Shown here piece after piece: positions 1,705 to 33,219 of a stretch of 64,000 nt of DNA. Made by a program: the position numbers and the translations under genes. Within the stretch, counting starts at the first letter, position 1. Each line of letters starts with the position of its first letter. Origin of the DNA: TPA_inf: Saccharomyces (Eukaryota); contig BK006946.2 in assembly GCA_000146045.2 (NCBI GenBank), positions 288,001-352,000 of the forward strand, read 5' to 3'. The notes under the pieces are model-generated. The model saw nothing but the letters and a program-made list of their open reading frames with translations, was not told where the DNA came from and ran no database searches.

Positions 1705-2800
1705 GAGATTATACTTAAACTAGCACTGATTTTTTTAAGGCTAATGGCTACTAATACTTTAATAGATGATCTTCATACTTTTTTATTTAACGATTTTTAA
1801 TGATGTTTTTATTTGTACCACTCATTTATCTAGATTTTTTTAATACTGATCAAATCTTACGGACTCGACGTTAAAAAGTTCCTACATACGTCTGGTACTT
1901 GAAACGCTGCTTCGAGGTATTGACACTATAAGAATACGATCCAAATACTTACACCGCATGTAAAAATATGCCGACAATATGAATACTTGTTGATGAATGA
2001 TATTTGATTTTAATCCGGCAATTTACCTCCTTTATATAATCCAATAATTGTTGATAATTAGTGGTTAGGTTGCAGTACTAATAAGAATTAAGACAAATAT
2101 TCTTCTACTATATAAAAGGTGCAAACAAAACACACGCCGATCGGCCATACTAAACAAGACCAACATAATAATGGTGGAACCATTTACTGTATTTTCAATG
2201 TAACGACTCATATCCTTATACATGAGACGTCAAGTTTCTCGTTGAAGTAATAATGAATCTTTAACTTTACTGTGCCACATATCACGTAATCATATATTGT
2301 TTTTCGCCTTCAAGCATCAATGGCGTATTGTGGCTGATTACTTCATATGATCACTAATTAACTAATTATGAAAAATAATAAATAAGTCACCAACCAAGCA
2401 AGGAAATTAGCTTCAAGTAAACAGTTGGTTCTTTCTGGCGAGTTAGAACAAAATTAAACAATAATCTATCGACTAGCATTCATATCACCAATATATCGTC
2501 ATATACAGCGAAATGATTGCATTTACTGGATTGAATGGATACACTTTGAAGATGAACCTTTATCATAGTTGAAATGGGATAGCTGAGAAACTTGTGCATG
2601 ATTTGATGATTGTTTGGGTTCAACCGTTGGGGATAAGGACTATAATATTAGGTACACAGAAATTCCAAATATATAAGTAGCAGTGCTTTATGAAACTATA
2701 ATGTCAGAGTAGTTATGTAAAAATAGAACAATTGATATGATCGTTTCTTTAATAACTCGATAAGGAGTTCTCTACGAAAAATATCAACAGTGAAATATAA

Positions 2801-2872
2801 TCCGATATAGTGTAACGGCTATCACATCACGCTTTCACCGTGGAGACCGGGGTTCGACTCCCCGTAGCGGAG
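2801..2872 (+). tRNA. tE(UUC): tRNA-Glu (anticodon UUC), 72 nt
   Basis: Sequence TCCGATATAGTGTAACGGCTATCACATCACGCTTTCACCGTGGAGACCGGGGTTCGACTCCCCGTAGCGGAG. Cloverleaf with anticodon loop CTTTCAC, T-loop GGTTCGACTCC, followed by a T-tract. See the finding on the acceptor-stem mismatch. Confidence 0.88.
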
Positions 2873-2882
2873 TTTTCTTTTT
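2873..2882 (+). terminator. Pol III terminator T-tract (TTTTCTTTTT) after tRNA-Glu
   Basis: T-run immediately 3' of the tRNA. Confidence 0.7.
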
Positions 2883-3133
2883 GAAGAAATTTGAAAATTT
2901 TTTTCTTCACGTCGACCAAGGTTTTTTCCGGTCAAACATGGCCAATAAAACGGATACCATTTCTTGGAAATTATACGCTTCGAAGTATTCTCAAAAAAGG
3001 AAATTGTCTGCAGTGAAGATTGGATATAAGGTTCACTAAACACAGAGTAGTAATTGAGCTGTAATTTGTTTACAGAACGAATCAAATCAGCGTAGTGTTA
3101 CAGTTTATCTGAGACTGCATATCTTTAATCTCT

Positions 3134-7178: not shown

Positions 7179-8738
7179 TCAAAGAGTAATTAATTTTTCA
7201 CAAATCATCATAAATGCAGGTATCAAAATATTGTCATTAAGCACACTATTACCTTCTAGCACTCCACTCAGTGTACAAAGGGTAAGCAATTGTAAAGTAG
7301 TTAGGTGGTTAAAAATTGCAGCTTTATCAAAACGTAACAATACCAAACAAACGATAAAACTCGTTACTATAAACGCAAGAGTTCCCTCTAAAGTTTTTTG
7401 TGTACCTTTCCAACGAATGCGGCCATACCTTTTACCAATAATAGATGCTAAGGAATCACCAATTCCCAATCCTATTAGACCCATTGGAGAGTTATTCATT
7501 AATAAAGGTGTTGATATTCCGAAGAGTAAATAAAGGTATGATATGATCAATGGCCCGCTGTGGTCCCTATCATCAGCAAACCTTCTTAGTTGTAATTCAA
7601 TAGCAGATCCTAACGGCGGTAGGTTTTGAAATCTTATGTACTCAATTGATAAGAAGACTGGTATTGTTCCGGACAATGCAATTTTCACAAAGTTTGAATC
7701 CATTTGGAATGACGGTATTATGAGTAAGAAAATGATGAAATGCCACAATTTTCGGGAGGTGTTCAACGATAGACTGTCCTTCTCGATCAATATACTTGGT
7801 ATGGACAGTATAAGAATTGAAGACCAAGCAAACAAAATCTTTTGACGAATAGTAGACTCTAAGATATATTTTACCAGCCAAAGTAGCGGATTTTCACCGT
7901 CTTCTAAATGAATGAAGGTATTGGCAAAAAGTGGAAGCCCGATGGCAAAGGATATTGACAGCATAAACGGTTTAAAGTGCATTACCTTTTTGAGCACATA
8001 GTTAATTGAAATTATTGTTGTGAGAGCAAGGATAATGCCCTTCAAAATTCTAAAATGTACTGTGCCAGCCTCTGAAACGTACAGAATATTGGTTAATAGG
8101 ATACTAAAAAGATTAGAGTCGATATTATCTAAACTTTTCAATTGCCCAATATACTTCAAAATTAACGACAGTAAAGAATTTATTACTATGCTAATAATAT
8201 TCTTTAACCTGTCACCAGCCTCAAAATTAAAAAATATGAGGCAGAGCTGTAAAATGATCACTACCAACTGAGTTCGCCATCTATATGAATTTAATACCGA
8301 AAGGATCAAAATAGTATTTATCACCGTAGATGATGTATCGAACAACAACGAAACCATAAACGGTAAATATAAACTGTAAATGGTATCGAACTTGGGTAGG
8401 CTTTTGTAACCATGTTGCCAATATTTTGTGAATATCAGACCAACCATTATCAAACACACCACAAAGACATTTACAAAGATTTGTTTATAAGATATATCAG
8501 CGGTAACAATGGACCACGGCTGAAGCCTTTCAACACAGTAAAAAAAAGTGCCCAACAATATAACAGTTTGAACAAAATTCGAATAAAAGCACTCAAAATC
8601 TCGAGAATTCCCGCCCACATCAAATTTACGAGTCCTCATATTGATTTTGCAGATCTCCTCAGTTGGCATTTGGCTTCCCTCAGTTTTCTGGGTTAGTTTA
8701 ATTGTGGTAAAGGAAGCATGAGGTATTATAGCGACCAT
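7179..8738 (-). CDS. SEC59: Dolichol kinase, polytopic ER membrane protein, 519 aa
   Basis: Multi-TM protein, 519 aa, with a dolichol kinase-like C-terminus (...LEGNSVLNDNILIP). Correct neighbour order. Confidence 0.88.
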   Translation of the reverse strand: MVAIIPHASFTTIKLTQKTEGSQMPTEEICKINMRTRKFDVGGNSRDFECFYSNFVQTVILLGTFFYCVERLQPWSIVTADISYKQIFVNVFVVCLIMVGLIFTKYWQHGYKSLPKFDTIYSLYLPFMVSLLFDTSSTVINTILILSVLNSYRWRTQLVVIILQLCLIFFNFEAGDRLKNIISIVINSLLSLILKYIGQLKSLDNIDSNLFSILLTNILYVSEAGTVHFRILKGIILALTTIISINYVLKKVMHFKPFMLSISFAIGLPLFANTFIHLEDGENPLLWLVKYILESTIRQKILFAWSSILILSIPSILIEKDSLSLNTSRKLWHFIIFLLIIPSFQMDSNFVKIALSGTIPVFLSIEYIRFQNLPPLGSAIELQLRRFADDRDHSGPLIISYLYLLFGISTPLLMNNSPMGLIGLGIGDSLASIIGKRYGRIRWKGTQKTLEGTLAFIVTSFIVCLVLLRFDKAAIFNHLTTLQLLTLCTLSGVLEGNSVLNDNILIPAFMMICEKLITL

Positions 8739-8965
8739 ATAGGCAATGAACAGAATAACGACAGTTTATTGCCTCGAAAGGAGTCTGATTTACTAGCTAA
8801 ATTCTAATATTTGGCTTACTACAAACTCTATCTTTCATAGAATACGTCCTTCGATACCATTTTCACCATCTTGACTAACAACGTGTACAACTCTTTTGAA
8901 AATTACGTGCCTGAAAACCCAACCATTGCGGACAGCCCTCAATAACGTATCTTAGCATTACCCGC

Positions 8966-8978
8966 ACACCCATACATC
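8966..8978 (+). promoter_or_regulatory. Rap1-binding site ACACCCATACATC upstream of the snoRNA array
   Basis: Exact match to the ACACCCRYACAYM consensus, followed by a T-rich tract. Typical yeast snoRNA/RP promoter architecture. Confidence 0.6.
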
Positions 8979-9030
8979 TAGAACTTTTTTCATTTCTGAA
9001 AATTTTTTTTTCTTCTAGGATTACTTCGGG

Positions 9031-9038
9031 TATAAATA
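9031..9038 (+). promoter_or_regulatory. TATA box (TATAAATA) for the polycistronic snoRNA precursor
   Basis: Canonical TATA about 55 bp downstream of the Rap1 site and about 240 bp upstream of the first C/D unit. Confidence 0.5.
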
Positions 9039-9275
9039 AGAGACGCAGAAATGGTTATTGGCAATTAATGCTTCCTCTCTTTAATAAGTTACAATATTAG
9101 AATCCTATGATTTCCATCACAAAGATCAATACAAAAGAAATATTCAGATGAGTGGGAGCTATGAAAGGCTGAGAGAGAAATTGAATCCATAAAACGTTTT
9201 TTTCCGTGTTCTTTTTTTCTTCTTTATCAAAGTTAGTTTTTCAGATATGTCTTTTGTCATTATCACAGGCTAATT

Positions 9276-9362
9276 ATTCCCTTGATGACCAAAATAAATT
9301 TTTACAAACTAGAGTTTCTGAATCTTTTGTGATTAGAACGTTTATTCTTATTTCTGAGGTTT
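9276..9362 (+). ncRNA. SNR78: Box C/D snoRNA unit 1 (probably snR78)
   Basis: C-like box TGATGA at 9283-9288, D' CTGA at 9318-9321, D CTGA at 9354-9357. First of seven units spaced about 200 bp apart. Confidence 0.5.
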
Positions 9363-9504
9363 TTAATTAGCAATAAAGAAGAAAAAACTGAAAGGAAAAG
9401 TCTAAATAGAAATACAGTAGTATTTCTTCAATTTCTCTGCTCTCCTTTCATTTACCACACCCATTTCAATTTTCTTTTTATTCCATATTTATTCAAAGGT
9501 GTTT

Positions 9505-9594
9505 GTTCATATGATGATTATAACAAAAACAAAAGCTGGAATTACTGGCTGAACGAGTATATGTTGATACGTTTTTGCACTATCCTGACCTAGC
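9505..9594 (+). ncRNA. SNR77: Box C/D snoRNA unit 2 (probably snR77, guide for 18S Um578)
   Basis: C box ATGATGA at 9511-9517, D' CTGA at 9549-9552, D CTGA at 9585-9588. The 11-nt guide GCTGGAATTAC (9535-9545), 3 nt upstream of D', is complementary to the conserved 18S sequence GUAAUUCCAGC and obeys the D'+5 rule. Confidence 0.72.
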
Positions 9595-9726
9595 AAACAC
9601 CTTTAAAATAAATACTAGAAAGTTGACACATTTCCATAAATTGGAAGAATACATTTAAGCTTAGAAAACAGTAGTTTTTTAGTGCTATTCTTCCGTAGAT
9701 TGATGTTTTCGATCTATTTGATACAA

Positions 9727-9830
9727 TGGAAATGAGGATCCACAGCACTGGGCACTGAGGGGGAAACAAATATCCTTTCAAATGAGTGACAATGCTTTAG
9801 CGGGCCTAGAAAACCCGCGCAACTGATCCA
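9727..9830 (+). ncRNA. SNR76: Box C/D snoRNA unit 3 (probably snR76)
   Basis: C-like ATGAGGA at 9732-9738, CTGA at 9755-9758, C'-like ATGAGTGA, D CTGA at 9823-9826. GGA/UCC terminal pairing and an internal GCGGG/CCCGC hairpin. Boundaries approximate. Confidence 0.42.
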
Positions 9831-9912
9831 TTGTAAGTTTTTCTGAGGGCTAACAGAATTTTCTATAGGGAAGAATGGATTTTTTTCTCATTTTCGTATA
9901 ATTATGTGAATT

Positions 9913-9994
9913 GGTTTTTATGATGAGATATTTATAGATGACGAGTCTGATCATTCGTGAAGACACAACTATTAAAATTACCATTCATGCCTTT
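9913..9994 (+). ncRNA. SNR75: Box C/D snoRNA unit 4 (probably snR75)
   Basis: Perfect C box ATGATGA at 9920-9926, D' CTGA at 9945-9948, D CTGA at 9985-9988. Confidence 0.55.
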
Positions 9995-10135
9995 CTGAAG
10001 CTGTTTACATTATTCTTTTCGATTAGCAAAGAATTTGGAAATAGAAAAAAATCGACAGATAACTAGTTCATCAGTTGATGTGTCTGTATTGCTTCCATGT
10101 TTTTTAAAGAAAATTTCTACCTTAGAGACGTCAAT

Positions 10136-10222
10136 GCTGCAGAAGATGAAACAAATTACTCAAATAGACAAGCATATGTCTGATCTTCATGATTGAAAAG
10201 AGCAATTAGTGTCTGATGCAAT
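10136..10222 (+). ncRNA. SNR74: Box C/D snoRNA unit 5 (probably snR74, guide for 18S Am28)
   Basis: C-like AGATGA at 10144-10149, D' CTGA at 10180-10183, C'-like ATGATTGA, D CTGA at 10213-10216. Terminal stem TGCA/TGCA. The 13-nt guide AGACAAGCATATG (10166-10178) is complementary to 18S rRNA nt 25-37 (CAUAUGCUUGUCU) and places A28 at D'+5. Confidence 0.75.
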
Positions 10223-10304
10223 TTAAACTAGAAAATTTATCTGAGAGAGATGAGAGATCGTACAAACTGTTTCAAGGTTTTTAACTTTTCTCCAATTTCA
10301 AAAA

Positions 10305-10413
10305 TTGTTTATGATGATTTCCACATTTCACGACGGTCAACTGCGTTTTTCGAATGTTTATCGATTAACTTTGATGATATTTCGCCTGTGACAGGGCGTG
10401 GTACTGAGCTTTA
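10305..10413 (+). ncRNA. SNR73: Box C/D snoRNA unit 6 (probably snR73)
   Basis: C box ATGATGA at 10311-10317, C' TGATGA at about 10373-10378, D CTGA at 10404-10407. Confidence 0.55.
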
Positions 10414-10551
10414 ATATTTTTAGCAAATTTAGAAATTGGGTCAAGCGAACCATTGTAATGCTGACTATTTGGACGACTCTAATCTCTTCAATATATTTGA
10501 GTTCAAATATATTAACTTGAGTAAATTTTCTCTTGCGTTAATTATAACTAA

Positions 10552-10650
10552 TTGTGATGTGATGACAACTTCTTGAGCTATATATTTTCTTGAGAACATC
10601 AATGAAGAAAACGTCTCATCAAATGATTTGCACGTCAGTCTGATCACAAG
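10552..10650 (+). ncRNA. SNR72: Box C/D snoRNA unit 7 (probably snR72)
   Basis: C box GTGATGA at 10559-10565, C'-like ATGAAGA, D CTGA at 10640-10643. Last unit before the BUD22 promoter. Confidence 0.5.
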
Positions 10651-10867
10651 CCATATAAAATTCTTTAAGTATTTTATCCATTCTACCTTTTTCATCTGTT
10701 AGTGATCGATTAAAGCAACACCCAGACATTACATGGCCCATATGGCAAAAATTTTCATCTCATCTACCTCATCACTGTGTGCATTTAGTGTATGAATGAC
10801 TACTTTAAGCAATTTAACCAGTATATACGTATAAAGAGGTCAAGTGTACGGATAACCCAAAGGAAAC

Positions 10868-12427
10868 ATGCCTTCCGAATCATCCGTCTCTATCTACAAG
10901 CTTGATCAGTTGGAGTATCAGTACCATTATTTGACAAAATCATTACAGAAGTTTGAACCAAGATATCCAAAAACTGCCAAATTATACAATTGTATAGGTA
11001 AAAAGAACAAAAAGAAAATTGAAAAACTGTTAAACTCTTTAGAGTTGAAAACTTTGGACAAAGAACTAGATGAAAGTTACTCAAAGTTACTCAATAATAA
11101 GATTCACTATTACGAGACGCATTTATCAAAATGTATAAAAGAACAAATTCAGAAAATATCCAAAAAAAATTCTAGTAAAGTGAAGGATGCTCAAAAAAAT
11201 AAATCACCCTCTATAGATATTGAAAAGATGCTTGCTACGCAGTTGTCATTAGATGATTTAGCACTCTTCATGACAAGATTTAGGCTGATCAAAATCTTAC
11301 ACCAGAGGATCAAACAAAAAAGCAAAAAGATTGAAGGTGATACGAATAATAAAACTTGGTTGAATAACAATGATTATAGTGGTTATATCAATGATAAGAC
11401 AAGTAAGTGGAACCCAAGCAATATATGGAATGAAGTTATTACGAAGCTGCCAAGTTGTGAAAAGTTAAACGCACTAATTGGTCAAAGTAAAATCGTTCAA
11501 AATCTAACCGAATCATTCGATTTGAGTATTTGTCTCATATTTGGATTTGATGTAAGCGCTATGAAAGCAAAGAAGTATGGAGCAAGGGAGAAGACGGCCA
11601 ATGCTAATCAGACGCACTCCAACATTGACTATGACACCGATGACGGCAATGAAAAGAATGCCATCGATAGCAAATCTAATGCGATCGGCGCACAAACTCA
11701 AAGCAATAAAGAAACAACGTCCGACAATGAGGATCTATTGATAAAGGAATACGAGGGAATGCTAGGCAGTTCAGGAGATGAAGGGGAAGGCGGCGGATAC
11801 TTGAACCCTAATATCAATTACAATGAAGTAACAGATGAAGAACCTAGCGAAGCGTCATCCGATGAGGATGACAGTGACGAACGCTTCAGCGACTCTGAAG
11901 AGAATGAACCAAGGAGAAAAAAACCAAAATTGCATAATTTACCTGAACTAATGGCTGGTTATTACAGTGGAAATGACACTGAAGAGGAAAGCGATGAAGA
12001 CAACAAAAATGTTAAGGGAAAGAAGAAAAAGAGAGACACAGCAGAAGACCGTACGGCCAGAGAGCAGATGTCAAACGAGCCAAAGAGGAAAAACAGACGT
12101 GGGCAAAGGGCAAGAAGAAAGATTTGGGAAAAAAAATACGGCTCACAAGCCAAGCACGTTCAAAGGGAATTGGAAAAGGAAATGGAAGATAGAAAGCAGA
12201 GGCAAATCGAGTACGAAGCAAGAGTAGCTAAGCGTGAAGCTAAAGCAGCATCATTAGAGGCCTCTAGGAGTAGGGAACGCGAAGACAGACGTACTGAAAC
12301 GAACAATAAGAAAGAAAAAGAAAGTGCATCCACTGGAGAAGAACATCCTTCTTGGATTGCAAAAAGATTAGCTGAAGAAAAATTACAAAAAGCTAAATTT
12401 GAAGGTAAGAAGATCAAATTTGATTGA
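10868..12427 (+). CDS. BUD22: Nucleolar 40S biogenesis / bud-site selection protein, 519 aa
   Basis: 519-aa ORF with an acidic Ser/Asp/Glu tract and a Lys/Arg-rich C-terminal coiled region, typical of a nucleolar factor. Correct position. Confidence 0.85.
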   Translation: MPSESSVSIYKLDQLEYQYHYLTKSLQKFEPRYPKTAKLYNCIGKKNKKKIEKLLNSLELKTLDKELDESYSKLLNNKIHYYETHLSKCIKEQIQKISKKNSSKVKDAQKNKSPSIDIEKMLATQLSLDDLALFMTRFRLIKILHQRIKQKSKKIEGDTNNKTWLNNNDYSGYINDKTSKWNPSNIWNEVITKLPSCEKLNALIGQSKIVQNLTESFDLSICLIFGFDVSAMKAKKYGAREKTANANQTHSNIDYDTDDGNEKNAIDSKSNAIGAQTQSNKETTSDNEDLLIKEYEGMLGSSGDEGEGGGYLNPNINYNEVTDEEPSEASSDEDDSDERFSDSEENEPRRKKPKLHNLPELMAGYYSGNDTEEESDEDNKNVKGKKKKRDTAEDRTAREQMSNEPKRKNRRGQRARRKIWEKKYGSQAKHVQRELEKEMEDRKQRQIEYEARVAKREAKAASLEASRSREREDRRTETNNKKEKESASTGEEHPSWIAKRLAEEKLQKAKFEGKKIKFD

Positions 12428-15235: not shown

Positions 15236-17593
15236 CTATTTTTCTTGTTTTTTTGTATCATCAGCAGCAATTTCTTCGTTGGAGACATCGCCAGCTCCAT
15301 CAACTTGTGATTTGGATGACTCTGACTCCTTGACAGGTTCTGCTTCACTAGGTTCGTTCGGTTGTGTTGCTTCATCGCTTGTACTTGTTTTTATTTTGTC
15401 AGTATCCGTCGAAGTCAATGCGGAGATTGGTAATTGACTAGATCGTGGCTCCTTTAATGTTTGATTATCTGGTACAGTATTCCCACTGTCTGCTTCCTTA
15501 GACCATTTGGAATGTGATGCCGATTCAGATTCCACTCTTGGAAGGGTGATTCCTGTATGGATACTTCCCACATTTGATTCAGATGATTGATTTGTGTTTG
15601 TTGTAGTTGGAGAAGGTGTCAAAGGCTTTGAATCTGCAGGTGTAATGCCTAATGTACTTGCCGAATTCATTGTGGCGTTGCGTGGATACGATAAGGGTGA
15701 AGCTATGTTGCCCATCAGTTGTTGTTTCATCGGCATTGTTGCCGAAAGGGTCTGTAGGTTAGTTATAGTATGTCCTTCTAGTTGGTTAGAGTTAGGCATT
15801 GTGCATTTTTTCAAGGGCTTTTCACCCGCAGCGATTGTACTTACAGCTGGTATAGAATTATTGGGTATAATTTTGTTGTTCAAATTCATTGAGGAGTATG
15901 TCAGCTGAGCAGCAGATATATTTGAAGGACCATTAGGATTTTGATAGTTGTTAATAGGTTGATAATAGGTACGCGGACTGATGGATTTAATACCAGTGCT
16001 ACTGCTACTACTACTGCTATCATTGCTTGGATTATTTTGTTTCAATACGCTCTGAATATCCCTGATGAACAAGGGATAAAGATAGTCAGCAATTTTTTCT
16101 CTTTGTGCTATTGCTAGGGCACGCTCAAACGGTATCCAGACACCCTTCAAATGCATGGAACCAATCTTCACCACATGCCTGATTTTTTCCGCTTTTAGAA
16201 TACCATCTCTTCTACCTCTTGTCATCTTAGTTACATTCAGAAGTTTGGTACCATTAACCATATCATTATCTGCTCTTCTTACCACTGAAATACCGTTAGC
16301 TTCTACCTGATAACATAGCGTTTTTTCATCCTCCCACATTGTTGTTGTTACTCTTGGCCTTATTATACTTGCCGAAGTGCCGCTGGTGTTACTGCCTGTG
16401 GCATTGGTAGTGGCGATTAAGGGCATCGGGTGCCTTATGGTAGTTGTTTGGAAAGAATTCATGGTTTTAGCCATTGAGTCATACTGTTGATCTGACACTC
16501 CGTGCCTATTTGCAGTTAAATAAGTTTCTTGATCAGTAGAGGGTTTAACTGGTGGAGTTATAGAATTTCCATCATACAACGGGCTCACCTGTTGTTGTTG
16601 CTGAGGCGGTAGCAAACCCACTTGCGGAAGATTGTAGCTTAAAGGTCCATTTTGGCTGGTTGGACCTTGAGTTGGCGTTGTTAATGATCTTGGAGGAATT
16701 GGAGAATGCGAGTTTGGAATTGACGAAGTCTTGTGAAAACCGGGGTATTGGTAGGTGGAAGGTTGTGGATAGTTTGACATTGGAGGCTGCTGAGCTAAGG
16801 ACGAGATACTATTACTATTGCGACTAGTGCGATTAGAATTGGGAGACATAGAGCCACTGGACGAATCAGAAGGTGGTCCAGATTTACTGAACTTTGAAAA
16901 TGCATTACCTATCTTTGGTGGTTGGGCCGGATACGTTTGAGCTTGTAATTGTTGTTGCTGCTGGTGTTGTTGCTGTTGTTCAAAGGTTGAGTAGGTTTTT
17001 TCCAAATTGGGGTTTTGGACTTGATTACTGGTTACAGATGGTGTTGCACCGTTAGTGGTTCCATCGCCGTTTGCAGGATAATAATAATACGCTTGTGGAT
17101 ACGAATATGCCATTGATTGTTGGGCTTGCATTTGGGGAAAATAATAGTAGTATGGTACATTGTTACTGATATTAGTACTGTTATTGCTTTTTTTGGTGGT
17201 GATTGCAGAACCATTCGGTAACGCAGTTGCAGTAGCGTTGGAAGGAACACCTACAGACGTGGAAGGTGGATTGGAAGCATTTGAGTCAGAACCGCTACTC
17301 TGAAAGGATTCTTGAACTTGATACATCTGAGGCTGGGATTGCAGTTGCTGTTGAGACTGGGATTGCGGCTGCTGATAATATTGCGGGTACGGCCACTGTT
17401 CAGGAACTACGTATTGGTAGGATACGGGCATCAGAGGTTGAACGCTCTGGCCGAGATATTGTTGTTGTTGCTGCTGCTGTTGGGTGGACTGGCCAATAGT
17501 ACTTTCGCTATTGCTCACGGCACTCATATTTGATTCCTGGCGCATGCGGTTGGACTTGATATCATTCGTATTGATTGGGTTACCGATGGGCAT
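15236..17593 (-). CDS. SOK2: APSES-family transcription factor, PKA-pathway regulator, 785 aa
   Basis: APSES/KilA-N DNA-binding domain ([36 protein letters not shown]...[14 protein letters not shown]). Long Gln-rich tracts. 785 aa. Confidence 0.92.
16951..16980. repeat. CAA/CAG trinucleotide repeat (poly-Gln) within the SOK2 coding sequence
   Basis: gttgttgctgctggtgttgttgctgttgtt on the + strand encodes a [10 protein letters not shown] tract on the - strand. A second tract lies at 17461-17484. Confidence 0.85.
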
Positions 17594-19150
17594 GACAAAA
17601 GGACCTTACCAGGGTTATATAAGGATGATTTTGTACTGTGCTTAACAAATCCACTTTCAATTTCTGAAAACAAAGATCAAAAAGGTTTTTTTTTTTTATA
17701 CAATTGTGAAGTATGTTTAATGAAAACAGCACAAAATGATATCTCTCTGCTTGCAATATAAAAAGCTATGGAAAAGGATTATCAACTATACTAGAAGGCT
17801 TACACACGCACAGGCACACACAACTAATGCAAAAGATAGTGGGGAAAAACTTCAAAAACTAACAAAAAGAAGTGTTAAAGATGAACTTTTTTCTTTTGTA
17901 TCGTCGGCTTGCCACATTCGATAAGTTAATAAAACACAAACGGGCAACACATCTACGTACTTTTTATGTGAAGACAAGAGAAAGAATACATCACTGATAC
18001 GTGCGTCTATTGCGCAGCACTGTACTATTGCGAAGAACTGAGTGAAGGCAAAGAATGAGATGATCGATGCTTAGCCGACTGTTAAACTTACTGAGCGGTA
18101 GCCTCTACTAGTTCCTTAGTCAGATCGCACTCAACTTGGAATGTTCCGTCAGGCCCACGGAAGAAAAAGCAACAAAAGAAAGAAAAACCGGACAACATGC
18201 GGGAAAAATGCAAACTGTGTGAGGGAAAAATTAACTTTAAAGATTACATCAACGGCGGGAAAAGATCCTTCCGCAGTCCTTCTACTGCGGTTTCCCTGCA
18301 GGCACAGCTAACCGGAGGGAAGACAAGTCAAGCGGACATGCAGTTCCCGCTCAGGCTTCTTTGCAGAGAAATCGGAATATGAATTTTTTGTGTTTTTTGT
18401 TAACTTCTTTACCATTCGCATCACGGGAAGAGTGTGTTGGCATAAGAGGCGCAAGAAAAAGGTGACCCACGGTGGTGGGAAAGAGAAGAAAAAGCCGTTT
18501 GCGGAAAGCAATGTTTTGCCCATTCAGAAACAATATCTTTGCTGTATCCCTACATGTATTATGCCGCGTTGCTTGTGCAGGTACGGAGTCCCTGCACGAT
18601 TTTTCAACAAGGTCTAGATTTGCTAAGACGATGAGGCGGAGCCCGAAACAAACAAGCCAAAAACCGGAATTTCGCGCTTGGTGTGCTTTCGCATCTTTTC
18701 GTGTGGTGAATGCACCTGGTGCACGCTGCGAAGGTGACGTAGCAATCCAAAAAAGGGAAGTCTAGGCGCTTTCAACCGCCCCCCACCGTGCATGCGGATT
18801 GGTTGTCACAATTCGCAGACATATTGGCAATGTTTCCTCCCCTCCTGTTGATGCGGGTAAGGGGTGTCTGTTATGCAGGAACAGGAAGGTAAAAATTAAA
18901 TGGGCCTTAATTCTGTAGACACTCTCTTGGGGTAATAAGGTTAAAAGCCATTGTTGAAGTACGGAATCATCTCTTCATTTTTTCAGCGCTTGTAAGGAAT
19001 TAATCCCCAGGAAGGTGCCGATGTAATGAGAGAAGTATTCTTGTTGTATCTCTTTGGTTCGGAGTATTTCCTTCTTTCTTTTCTTTGTAGTTTTTATGCA
19101 AATGCAGGGAACAGAGTACCCGGTTAAGGCTGTTAGTCAGCCGCACTCTA

Positions 19151-19157
19151 CACAAAA
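19151..19157 (+). promoter_or_regulatory. Middle sporulation element core (CACAAAA) upstream of SPO20
   Basis: tACACAAAAt approximates the Ndt80 MSE consensus gNCRCAAAW. It lies about 335 bp upstream of the SPO20 ATG, a middle-sporulation gene. Confidence 0.4.
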
Positions 19158-19488
19158 TTACTTGGCAAACACGTTGGTTGGGAAAAGCTTTATACTTGGC
19201 GGTGTAGTAATTGTAAAGGATCAAGATTGTGTCATGCTAATGTGCCGCTGTGTAACAACCTTTTTGAAGCGCGTATTTACCACCGGCAAAAGGCCATTGT
19301 GTCACATAAAAAAAAACTCCCGCCAAAGCCAGGTTCATTTTGCATAAGATTCACCACAGTACGGAAAATACGATAAGTTAACCAGTAATTTGCTCGCTTT
19401 AGCTACTGATAAACCTTCTCTGTTAACACTATTATTTTTTTATTACTTTAGATTTTTCCGTTTGTGAATAGCCATTTTTAGATATATA

Positions 19489-20682: not shown

Positions 20683-22207
20683 TCTGTTATACACACAAAA
20701 TATCGTGTATAAATATATTGAATAAATAGTTTCTAAAAAGGCATACGCAGATATTCTTGCGAAAGAGAAAAAAAAAAGAGCGAGGGGGACATTAGTACTG
20801 AAGGTCTCAATTCTTCTTTGTATTTTCTTTCGGAGTTGTCAGACAAAGCTTTCTCTTTCCCATAAATAAAGTGCATTCAAACATCGGCAGGTTTGTTTTT
20901 CCCAGTTGTTACGTATTTGTTTCCCGTTCCATTCATGATCTTAAACTGGGTTAACTGAAAAATCAACATGATTTTGTGAAAAGTAAAAGAGGGTAAGAAA
21001 GATAGATACCGCTGTCGTGGGACTATATTTTTTACAGTACCAAGTCTACTTGCTTCTCATAAAGTTGATAAGTTATAATTCATATAATTTCATTTGTCAA
21101 AAAAGATTTTAGTTACAAAACGATATCAAAGTTCAATCTTGTTGGGAAAAAGGAAAACATTATGAAGGGTTTCCGGTAATCACTGCGTATGCCACACTAT
21201 TCCTATAGAATTGTCTTGATTGGGTGCTTATGCTGCGGAAAAATTATATTCTGCGCTTGCCTTTTATATTAAGCGTCACAACGCCCTTACCAAGATCGAG
21301 CGGATTAAGACAAGAGTGTATCTCAAGCGTCCGTATATGTTTAAGTTGAAAAGGATATTTAGTAAGAATAATTCTACCCTACAAACGATATTAGTAAAAA
21401 AAAAAATCAATAATAGAGTTATTGTACAAACATGTTCTGAAAATTGGAAGCATCACATCGTATGCTACTAGAGAAAATTTTTACTATCCTTTTTTCCACA
21501 AGCCCAGCCCTAGCCCGATCATCCTATTAATTGTCAGACCACCGAATGCTATCCCGCCACGGTTGATATAACGAAACTCTTTACTGCTTTGGGTCAAATA
21601 TGCCTCTTTTCCGCATTTTTTCGGAGTAGTTCATTGCCGCATACATACCGCAACTTGGACGAGGATGTCCTCCTTCTCTTACTTTTTTATTCGTTTCCAA
21701 TTTGTTTCTCGTACCGTTCAAGTTTCAAGCCTACAAGAAATGTACACGACATGGATGCGTCAGCCTGATTCAGATATGACAAGATTGTTCCTGCGCATAT
21801 GTGAATATGAGCGCACGCAATACATTGAGATCTTATTTGGGTTTGTAAGTGCAAACTTAATTTACTTTGCTTCCTGCCGGTTTTGATGTGCACCTGGGAA
21901 CTTAAATAGCCGCCAAAAGAAAAGCAATCAGAGCGGCGCGGCGCAGACAAAACCCGAAGAGTTTCCTGGGAACGGTAGAGGCCTTGGTAGTACCTTACTA
22001 ACGCCGGAGAGGATGATTGATACGCATTGAAATCGTACAGAAAACTTGGGGCAAAGCGCTCTTACCCCAATATTCTCACCCAAACAGTGGCAATAAATAA
22101 AGAAAAGGTCATCACTTTTTTTCGTACTCTTATCCGTTTTATTTTATTTTATTCTTTTTTTTTGAGTGGAGAATCATTAAGAATAAAGGGTACCTTTTGT
22201 AAGCACG

Positions 22208-33146: not shown

Positions 33147-33219
33147 TGGACGAGTCCGGAATCGAACCGGAGACCTCTCCCATGCTAAGGGAGCGCGCTA
33201 CCGACTACGCCACACGCCC
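33147..33219 (-). tRNA. tA(AGC): tRNA-Ala (anticodon AGC), 73 nt
   Basis: The reverse complement reads GGGCGTGTGGCGTAGTCGGTAGCGCGCTCCCTTAGCATGGGAGAGGTCTCCGGTTCGATTCCGGACTCGTCCA. This is the canonical yeast tRNA-Ala, with the G3:U70 identity pair. Confidence 0.93.

Follow-up and report, generated by a model that had tools for sequence, protein, structure and literature searches.

The 64,000-nucleotide window of Saccharomyces DNA analyzed here (contig BK006946.2) contains a 2,129-bp gap, lying between positions 8738 and 10868, in which a scan for open reading frames (ORFs) found none of at least 150 amino acids. It is bordered on the left by SEC59 (7179-8738, minus strand), encoding a dolichol kinase of 519 amino acids, and on the right by BUD22 (10868-12427, plus strand). 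A Pfam search of the 519-amino-acid protein (7179-8738) returned no match, and the exact-sequence look-up made afterwards gave Sec59p; by the same look-up, both flanking proteins are residue-for-residue S. cerevisiae S288C Sec59p and Bud22p (NP_013727). An earlier examination of the letters, made without database searches (the sequence-only reading), had placed seven box C/D modules on the plus strand between these two genes, where, as it also remarked, the ORF track is blind. The Rfam matches and the box map described below bear this out, and the gap is almost certainly the polycistronic box C/D small nucleolar RNA (snoRNA) locus SNR78-SNR77-SNR76-SNR75-SNR74-SNR73-SNR72 of S. cerevisiae chromosome XIII (chrXIII).

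Two published data sets fix this identity. Van Nues et al. (PMC3116282) amplified "the snR72-snR78 gene cluster" with a pair of PCR primers, and both have exact, unique matches in the window, at 8714-8735 (plus strand) and 10836-10856 (minus strand), which bracket the gap. Cut sites of the RNase III enzyme Rnt1 were published in chrXIII coordinates for "SNR78-SNR72" (PMC13183374, supplementary table 1), and among about 64,000 offsets tested only 287,997-288,002 set all five groups of cut sites 12-24 nt from the loop of an AGNN-capped hairpin; the window therefore corresponds to chrXIII:288,001-352,000. The flanking genes, primer sites, coordinates, seven snoRNAs, their order, their seven targets, and the Rnt1 cut sites are identical to those of SNR78-SNR72 (YNCM0011W-YNCM0017W), and no difference was found in a comparison that covered features other than the mature 5' and 3' ends. 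The seven genes, the sites they target, and the way they are processed are thus already known and annotated in SGD, and nothing here is new to biology. The original description is said to be that of Qu et al. in 1999 (Mol Cell Biol 19:1144). For the polycistronic organization of snR78-snR72 and the pathway in which Rnt1 acts before Rat1, that study is cited by two later papers (PMC4330371, PMC13183374). The sequence-only reading had named the Rat1/Rnt1-processed snR78-snR72 cluster of chrXIII outright, and flanks, primers, gene order, targets, and published cuts all agree with it. A non-coding multigene locus invisible to the ORF track was thus recognized from raw sequence alone, with unit starts 0-5 nt off and two guides exact to the base.

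Anatomy and conservation of the seven units

A scan of the whole window against Rfam at gathering thresholds gave eight matches, comprising two tRNAs elsewhere and six C/D snoRNA families in the gap, the latter all on the plus strand and scoring 66-119 bits (snR78, snR77, snR76, snR75, snR73, and snoZ122, which corresponds to snR72). Unit coordinates given here are the boundaries of the Rfam matches and represent only approximate mature ends. The starts proposed earlier, from about 9276 to 10552, lie within 0-5 nt of them.

The first unit, snR78 (9278-9359; RF01176, 88.5 bits, threshold 48), carries a C box UGAUGA at 9283-9288, a guide at 9305-9316, a D' box CUGA at 9318-9321, a C' box UGAUUA at 9330-9335, and a D box CUGA at 9354-9357. 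It is followed by snR77 (9507-9590; RF01181, 100.8 bits, threshold 50), with C box AUGAUGA at 9511-9517, guide at 9534-9547, D' box CUGA at 9549-9552, and D box CUGA at 9585-9588, and by snR76 (9727-9830; RF01209, 100.6 bits, threshold 55), whose C box AUGAGGA (9732-9738), guide (9744-9754), and D' box CUGA (9755-9758) precede a split C' box, AUGAGUGA (9782-9789, plus strand), and a D box CUGA (9823-9826). In snR75 (9918-10000; RF01185, 78.1 bits, threshold 40), the C box AUGAUGA occupies 9920-9926, the guide 9935-9945, the D' box CUGA 9947-9950, the C' box UGAAGA 9958-9963, and the D box CUGA 9995-9998. The fifth unit, snR74 (10138-10220), has a C box AAGAUGA at 10143-10149, a guide at 10166-10178, a D' box CUGA at 10180-10183, a C' box AUGAUUG at 10189-10195, and a D box CUGA at 10213-10216. 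The highest score belongs to snR73 (10307-10409; RF01207, 118.9 bits, threshold 37), which combines a C box AUGAUGA (10311-10317), a guide (10326-10338), a degenerate D' box CUGC (10341-10344), a C' box UGAUGA (10372-10377), and a D box CUGA (10404-10407). The last unit, snR72 (10551-10650; RF00343 snoZ122, 66.4 bits, threshold 38), differs in the position of its guide (10624-10638), which lies downstream of the C box GUGAUGA (10559-10565) and the C' box UGAAGA (10603-10608), next to the D box CUGA (10640-10643).

The terminal D box is CUGA in all seven units. The C box is canonical in four (snR77, snR75, snR73, and snR72) and departs from the canon at one position, with the GA dinucleotides kept, in the other three (snR78 UUGAUGA, snR76 AUGAGGA, snR74 AAGAUGA). 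Terminal stems are present in snR76 (UGGA/UCCA, 8 bp including flanks), snR72 (UUGUGAU/AUCACAA), snR74 (UGCA/UGCA), and snR78 (2 bp according to the Rfam model); a terminal C/D stem was also looked for in snR77, snR75, and snR73, and none was evident. The strict pattern RTGATGA-N50-95-CTGA occurs four times in the 1.4-kb cluster, as against six times in the remaining approximately 125 kb of strand. Core proteins have been reported to cross-link (CRAC) to C/D snoRNAs of yeast, snR72 among them (PMC3116282).

For comparison, seven further loci (L011-L017) were fetched via their BUD22 orthologues, from a Saccharomyces species whose BUD22 protein is 86% identical (probably S. paradoxus), S. arboricola, S. 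kudriavzevii, S. uvarum, Kazachstania africana, Lachancea thermotolerans, and Kluyveromyces lactis. All seven show the same layout, with a dolichol kinase gene on the minus strand, a gap of 2.0-2.5 kb, and BUD22 on the plus strand, and in all of them the Rfam families recur unchanged in the order 78-77-76-75-74-73-72. Identity within the five Saccharomyces species is 88-100% for the snoRNAs and 66-88% for the spacers. The core order 77-76-75-74-73 and the size of about 1.5 kb are reported to be conserved throughout the Ascomycota (PMC5824354). The snR72 homologue of L. thermotolerans (L016:4535-4620) scores 32 bits, under the snoZ122 threshold of 38.

One unit sits uneasily with a full set of seven: snR74 falls below every Rfam gathering score, its best match being human SNORD27 (U27, RF00086), with 35.9 of the 52 bits required (E = 5e-4). 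The Rfam check suggested by the sequence-only reading was accordingly passed by six units only, and the accompanying refutation test, an absence of Rfam hits, would wrongly fail snR74, which has no above-threshold match. The slot between snR75 and snR73 is nevertheless filled in all seven orthologous yeast loci by a unit with a guide, an adjacent D' box, a terminal CUGA, and a C box, and the 12-nt guide GACAAGCAUAUG is identical in all of them. The L. thermotolerans copy is likewise a sub-threshold SNORD27 match, at 36.8 bits. The shortfall of snR74 reflects the lack of a yeast-specific Rfam model, not a defective gene, and reliance on Rfam thresholds alone would lose one of the seven genes. 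In K. lactis (L017:4068-4156), snR74 has a canonical C box GUGAUGA and a D' box CUUA.

SNORD27 is a functional homologue of snR74, just as plant snoZ122 (RF00343), whose threshold snR72 exceeds, is a functional homologue of snR72; the relationship of guide to target is the same in each case. In vertebrates, the homologues are released one by one from host-gene introns rather than from a polycistron transcribed on its own. The methylated nucleotide assigned to snR74, Am28, is marked as conserved in human (PMC8307265).

Guides and rRNA targets

Each guide was compared with the 18S and 25S rRNA. References were a 25S rRNA of 3,396 nt (L010:3900-7295; Rfam LSU, 3,401.6 bits) and an 18S rRNA of 1,800 nt (L001:3001-4800), taken from rDNA contigs that had been retrieved from a metagenome collection with a 25S D2 pattern. 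Ten public metagenome contigs (L001-L010), several of them labelled human gut, contain an S. cerevisiae-type 25S D2, and several hold a full rDNA unit with an 18S of 1,800 nt and a 25S of 3,396 nt. For each D or D' box, the preceding 22 nt were tested, and a duplex had to cover the fifth nucleotide upstream of the box.

Every unit gave one clear guide solution, with duplexes of 11-15 bp against the real 18S and 25S sequences. In snR78, a 12-bp duplex with 25S 2418-2429 places U2421 at D'+5; in snR77, a 14-bp duplex with 18S 575-588 does so for U578. The guides of snR76 and snR75 each form 11 Watson-Crick pairs, with 25S 2193-2203 (C2197 at D'+5) and 25S 2285-2295 (G2288 at D'+5), respectively, and that of snR74 forms 13 with 18S 25-37 (A28 at D'+5). 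A 13-bp duplex of snR73 with 25S 2957-2969 puts C2959 at +5 from the CUGC at 10341-10344, and snR72 pairs over 15 bp, of which 14 are Watson-Crick, with 25S 873-887, which sets A876 at D+5. Two of these guides had been worked out by eye beforehand, and both are exact to the base: AGACAAGCATATG (10166-10178), which pairs with 18S 25-37 and puts A28 at D'+5 in snR74, and AGCTGGAATTAC (9534-9545), which pairs with 18S 577-588 and puts U578 at D'+5 in snR77.

All seven predicted targets equal the published assignments of 2'-O-methylated sites to snoRNAs, namely Um2421 to snR78, Um578 to snR77, Cm2197 to snR76, Gm2288 to snR75, Am28 to snR74, Cm2959 to snR73, and Am876 to snR72 (PMC8307265). The use of the D box by snR72 and of the D' box by snR78 is likewise documented (PMC5824354). 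Accessory complementarity was found in two units, in each case just upstream of the D box: ACCCGCGC of snR76 (9813-9820) forms eight Watson-Crick pairs with 25S 2234-2241, and nucleotides 9981-9990 of snR75 form ten with 25S 2307-2316. Mutation has shown that the extra base-pairing of snR76 and snR75 stimulates methylation, with a 4-5-fold loss for snR75 (PMC3116282).

Complementarity to rRNA by itself often arises by chance, and this has to be set against the result. An unanchored comparison of the gap with rRNA recovers all seven guides, and matches of 10 nt or more number 9.5 per shuffle and 11 on the minus strand; matches of at least 11 nt occurred in 180 of 200 shuffles of the gap. The unanchored scan was rejected as stand-alone evidence and replaced by a box-anchored test over all 782 CTGA/CTGC boxes of the window, about 50 of which show at least 10 Watson-Crick pairs in register. 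The discriminating fact is therefore that all seven guides of the cluster hit documented methylated nucleotides; a match to rRNA counts as evidence only when it stands in box register and falls on a known modified site.

Outside the cluster, one match also points to a documented site; it lies at 17286-17303 (plus strand), where TCAGAACCGCTACT is followed by CTGA. Nucleotides 17286-17299 pair perfectly with 25S 863-876 (14 Watson-Crick pairs), which sets G867, the Gm site assigned to snR50, at +5. As a candidate eighth snoRNA this site was rejected: it lies antisense within an ORF of 785 amino acids (15236-17593), lacks a canonical C box, the nearest thing to one being a weak GUGAUUG some 100 nt upstream, and gives no Rfam match at E values up to 10. 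We judge the match to be a coincidence.

The frequency of such 10-11-nt complementarities, both in shuffles and at boxes, together with the existence of a match as striking as that at 17300, could be taken to mean that the C/D-like motifs of the gap and their complementarities are themselves accidents of A+T-rich intergenic DNA. That reading is vanishingly improbable in view of six Rfam matches of 66-119 bits, seven of seven guides on methylated nucleotides assigned to snoRNAs of the same name, the higher conservation of the snoRNAs relative to the spacers, and a snoRNA order identical in eight species.

Promoter and transcription unit

Upstream of snR78, three blocks are invariant in the five Saccharomyces species: AGCCCTCAATAA (8934-8945, plus strand), CATTACCCG (8956-8964, plus strand), and GGTATAAATAAGAGA (9029-9043), the last of which includes the TATA box TATAAATA (9031-9038, plus strand). 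The CATTACCCG block contains TTACCCG, which we take to be a Reb1-type core. Next to it, at 8966-8978 on the plus strand, lies an exact match (ACACCCATACATC) to the Rap1 consensus ACACCCRYACAYM; the window has no second match even if one mismatch is tolerated. The sequence-only reading had pointed to a Rap1 site and a TATA box at 8966-9038, and both are exact; the Rap1 site, however, is exact only in S. cerevisiae and just partly kept in its sister species, the corresponding sequences being ACATCCATACATT in the probable S. paradoxus, ACGCCCACACATT in S. arboricola, ACGCCCAAACATT in S. kudriavzevii, and CCGCCCAAACATT in S. uvarum, and it is the neighbouring CATTACCCG that is invariant.

All seven units lie on the plus strand behind this single conserved TATA box with its upstream block; within the spacers, nothing promoter-like was found to be conserved. 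According to the literature, the seven snoRNAs form one precursor that is split by Rnt1, after which Rat1 matures the 5' ends and TRAMP and the exosome the 3' ends (PMC4330371, PMC13183374). A set of seven separate genes, with a promoter for each in the spacer before it, would be in keeping with the fact that most yeast snoRNAs are independent units (PMC5934358), and the A+T-rich spacers do contain TATA-like strings. Such an arrangement is nonetheless very improbable, because the only promoter-like conserved block sits upstream of snR78, the conserved islands of the spacers are hairpins and not promoter motifs, Rnt1 cuts map within four spacers, two spacers measure just 86-87 nt, and the papers cited above describe one precursor.

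Two ends of the polycistronic unit are less firmly drawn and weigh against a complete account of it. At the promoter, 0.45 matches to the Rap1 consensus at up to one mismatch are expected per window by chance, so the match alone is weak evidence; since it also drifts among the sister species, and such matches occur in 39% of shuffled windows, the sequence does not secure Rap1 as the activator, which may be a different protein. At the other end, a scan of the trailer for Nrd1/Nab3 motifs found one UCUU and no GUAA/G, and the terminator was not located.

The 217 bp from the 3' end of snR72 to the BUD22 start codon (10651-10867) contain an RRPE-like element, AAAAATTTT (10747), two PAC-core CTCATC motifs (10759 and 10768), and an invariant AACACCCAGACAT (10718-10730). 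From these motifs, the interval looks like a BUD22 promoter of the ribosome-biogenesis type packed against the snoRNA terminator.

Spacer hairpins and release of the snoRNAs

The units start 229, 220, 191, 220, 169, and 244 bp apart, and a periodicity of about 200 bp, as first proposed, is a fair description of this range, but the spacers really form two classes. Numbered S1 to S6 from snR78 to snR72, those with Rnt1 hairpins (S1, S2, S4, and S6) measure 147, 136, 137, and 141 nt, and those without (S3 and S5) 87 and 86 nt; each of the five Saccharomyces species shows both length classes. A greedy stem-walker used to look for AGNN-capped hairpins was too strict on internal loops and found one, and it was replaced by local and constrained folds in ViennaRNA. 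With the five-species alignment added, such hairpins were found in four of the six spacers. Long AGNN hairpins have a background frequency of about 0.11 per kb of strand in this window.

The S1 hairpin (9389-9450, plus strand; 23 bp, free energy -15.4 kcal/mol) is capped by the tetraloop AGUA at 9416-9419 and is an Rnt1 substrate, with a published cut in the 3' arm at 9435-9437 (chrXIII 297435-7), 16-18 nt 3' of the loop. Across the five species its loop reads AGUA, AGUG, AGCA, AGUG, and AGUU, so that AG is invariant and NN free, and 105 of 115 pair cells are kept. In S2, a spacer that as a whole folds with z = -3.3, the substrate hairpin (9643-9694, plus strand; 20 bp, -15.9 kcal/mol, AGUA at 9670-9673) is cut in both arms, at 9649 (chrXIII 297649) on the 5' side and at 9689-9691 (297689-91) on the 3' side; 94 of 100 cells are paired, and S. 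arboricola carries a compensatory change from A-U to G-C. The S6 substrate (10490-10513, plus strand) consists of 10 perfect base pairs, AAUAUAUUUG-AGUU-CAAAUAUAUU, extendable to about 10484-10521, and is cut in the 5' arm at 10484-10485 (chrXIII 298484-5), 15-16 nt 5' of the loop; all 50 pair cells are kept, its three substitutions all being A-U to G-U.

The hairpin of S4 (10055-10087, plus strand), ACAGAUA...CAUC-AGUU-GAUG-UGUCUGU with an invariant AGUU loop at 10073-10076, is hidden in the single sequence by a competing minimum-energy fold and was revealed in the five-species alignment, so that comparison recovered a processing hairpin that single-sequence folding overlooked. It too is an Rnt1 substrate, cut in the 5' arm at 10051-10052 (chrXIII 298051-2).

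The stems vary less than the spacers around them: 13 of 46 columns are variable in the S1 stem versus 53 of 94 in the rest of the spacer, with corresponding values of 8/40 versus 54/87 for S2, 2/22 versus 88/128 for S4, and 3/20 versus 82/134 for S6. Of the pair cells in the four stems, 91-100% remain paired; most changes turn A-U into G-U, and two are double (compensatory). The Rnt1-dependent ends were seen in vivo and reproduced with the recombinant enzyme (PMC13183374, supplementary table 1). Mapped here onto the hairpins, the published cuts lie 15-22 nt from the loops of S1, S2, S4, and S6, or 14-16 nt when the 5' arm is counted without its unpaired nucleotides. Counted in this way, the distances are consistent with the 12-18 nt from the loop reported for Rnt1 sites (PMC5934358).

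Taken with the literature, these features fit a scheme in which one RNA polymerase II promoter (blocks at 8934-8978, TATA box at 9031-9038) gives rise to a single precursor of about 1.5-1.6 kb bearing all seven C/D snoRNAs. Rnt1 would recognize the AGNN stems of S1, S2, S4, and S6 and cut about 14-16 bp from the loop, after which Rat1/Xrn1 (5'-3') and the exosome with TRAMP (3'-5') would trim the products to the edges of the small nucleolar ribonucleoproteins (snoRNPs), whose core would be the C/D kink-turn bound by Snu13, Nop56, Nop58, and Nop1. Each guide would then pair over 11-15 nt with rRNA, and Nop1 would methylate the 2'-OH opposite the fifth nucleotide upstream of the box, predicted to be D' in snR78, snR77, snR76, snR75, snR74, and snR73 and D in snR72, while the accessory stretches of snR75 and snR76 would pair near the target and boost methylation. 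The identity of the locus, its box anatomy, the register of guides and targets, the hairpins with their conservation, and their coincidence with the published cuts are our own observations; the single transcript, the dependence on Rnt1 and Rat1, and the existence of the methyl groups come from the literature.

Several results weigh against AGNN stems as a sufficient explanation of this processing. Neither S3 (9831-9917) nor S5 (10221-10306) contains an AGNN hairpin, even if the requirement is lowered to two closing pairs, the leader has none under relaxed enumeration except one of 5 bp, and the published table of Rnt1 cuts lists no cut in the leader, S3, or S5. Because these three segments have neither hairpin nor listed cut, Rnt1 cleavage at AGNN stems alone does not explain the release of all seven snoRNAs: cuts in the four mapped spacers would leave snR76-snR75 and snR74-snR73 joined in a form that exonucleases cannot separate, which implies either unconventional Rnt1 sites or another activity.

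That Rnt1 also cuts S3, S5, and the leader, at stems without a recognizable AGNN cap or after recruitment by snoRNP proteins, and that these cuts escaped the published mapping, has about an even chance of being correct. SNR78 is listed as uncapped, with a signal in native elongating transcript sequencing (NET-seq) where its 5' extension has a predicted Rnt1 site, and all snoRNA clusters are said to be excised from their transcription unit by Rnt1 (PMC5934358). In the leader, five-species consensus folding gave a conserved long-range duplex of approximately 9163-9186 with approximately 9228-9258, without an AGNN cap, and the last 60 nt or so before snR78 (9215-9277) are nearly invariant across the five species; in K. 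africana, S3 and S5 do have AGNN candidates. The lack of hairpins noted above, the in vivo and in vitro table without a site in any of the three segments, and the weak consensus folds of S3 and S5 (-3.4 and -5.7 kcal/mol) argue in the opposite direction.

The two-class distribution of spacer lengths in all five Saccharomyces species, with AGNN hairpins and mapped cuts missing from exactly the short class, would suit a route in which snR76/snR75 and snR74/snR73 leave Rnt1 as dicistronic intermediates and are then parted by another nuclease or in another way that involves no Rnt1 cut in S3 or S5. We regard this route as possible but rather unlikely: our analysis identified no candidate nuclease signal for it, an uncut spacer joining two snoRNPs is not separable by exonucleases alone, and the available descriptions of the cluster and of yeast snoRNA processing give separation by Rnt1 only (PMC4330371, PMC13183374, PMC5934358). 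Release of these pairs and of the snR78 5' end by a signal or nuclease undescribed for this cluster appears improbable.

The spacers of the orthologous clusters have diverged, and in Kazachstania, Lachancea, and Kluyveromyces AGNN hairpins occur in partly different spacers. Other Rnt1-processed C/D clusters of S. cerevisiae are SNR190-U14, SNR41/70/51, and SNR67/53, and they likewise combine an RNA polymerase II promoter, a single coding strand, AGNN stems in the spacers, and cleavage by Rnt1 followed by exonucleases. They hold two or three genes as against the seven of SNR78-SNR72, which also differs from them in that two of its six spacers lack a recognizable Rnt1 signal. A further such polycistron, SNR57/SNR55/SNR61, lies on chrXII (PMC13183374).

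Elsewhere in the window, stretches without an ORF of at least 150 amino acids are found at 17594-19488 (1,895 bp), 20683-22207 (1,525 bp), and 1705-3133 (1,429 bp); in these three, Rfam at the gathering threshold found nothing except tRNA-Glu in 1705-3133. The tRNA genes of the window are tRNA-Glu(UUC) at 2801-2872 (plus strand) and tRNA-Ala(AGC) at 33147-33219 (minus strand).

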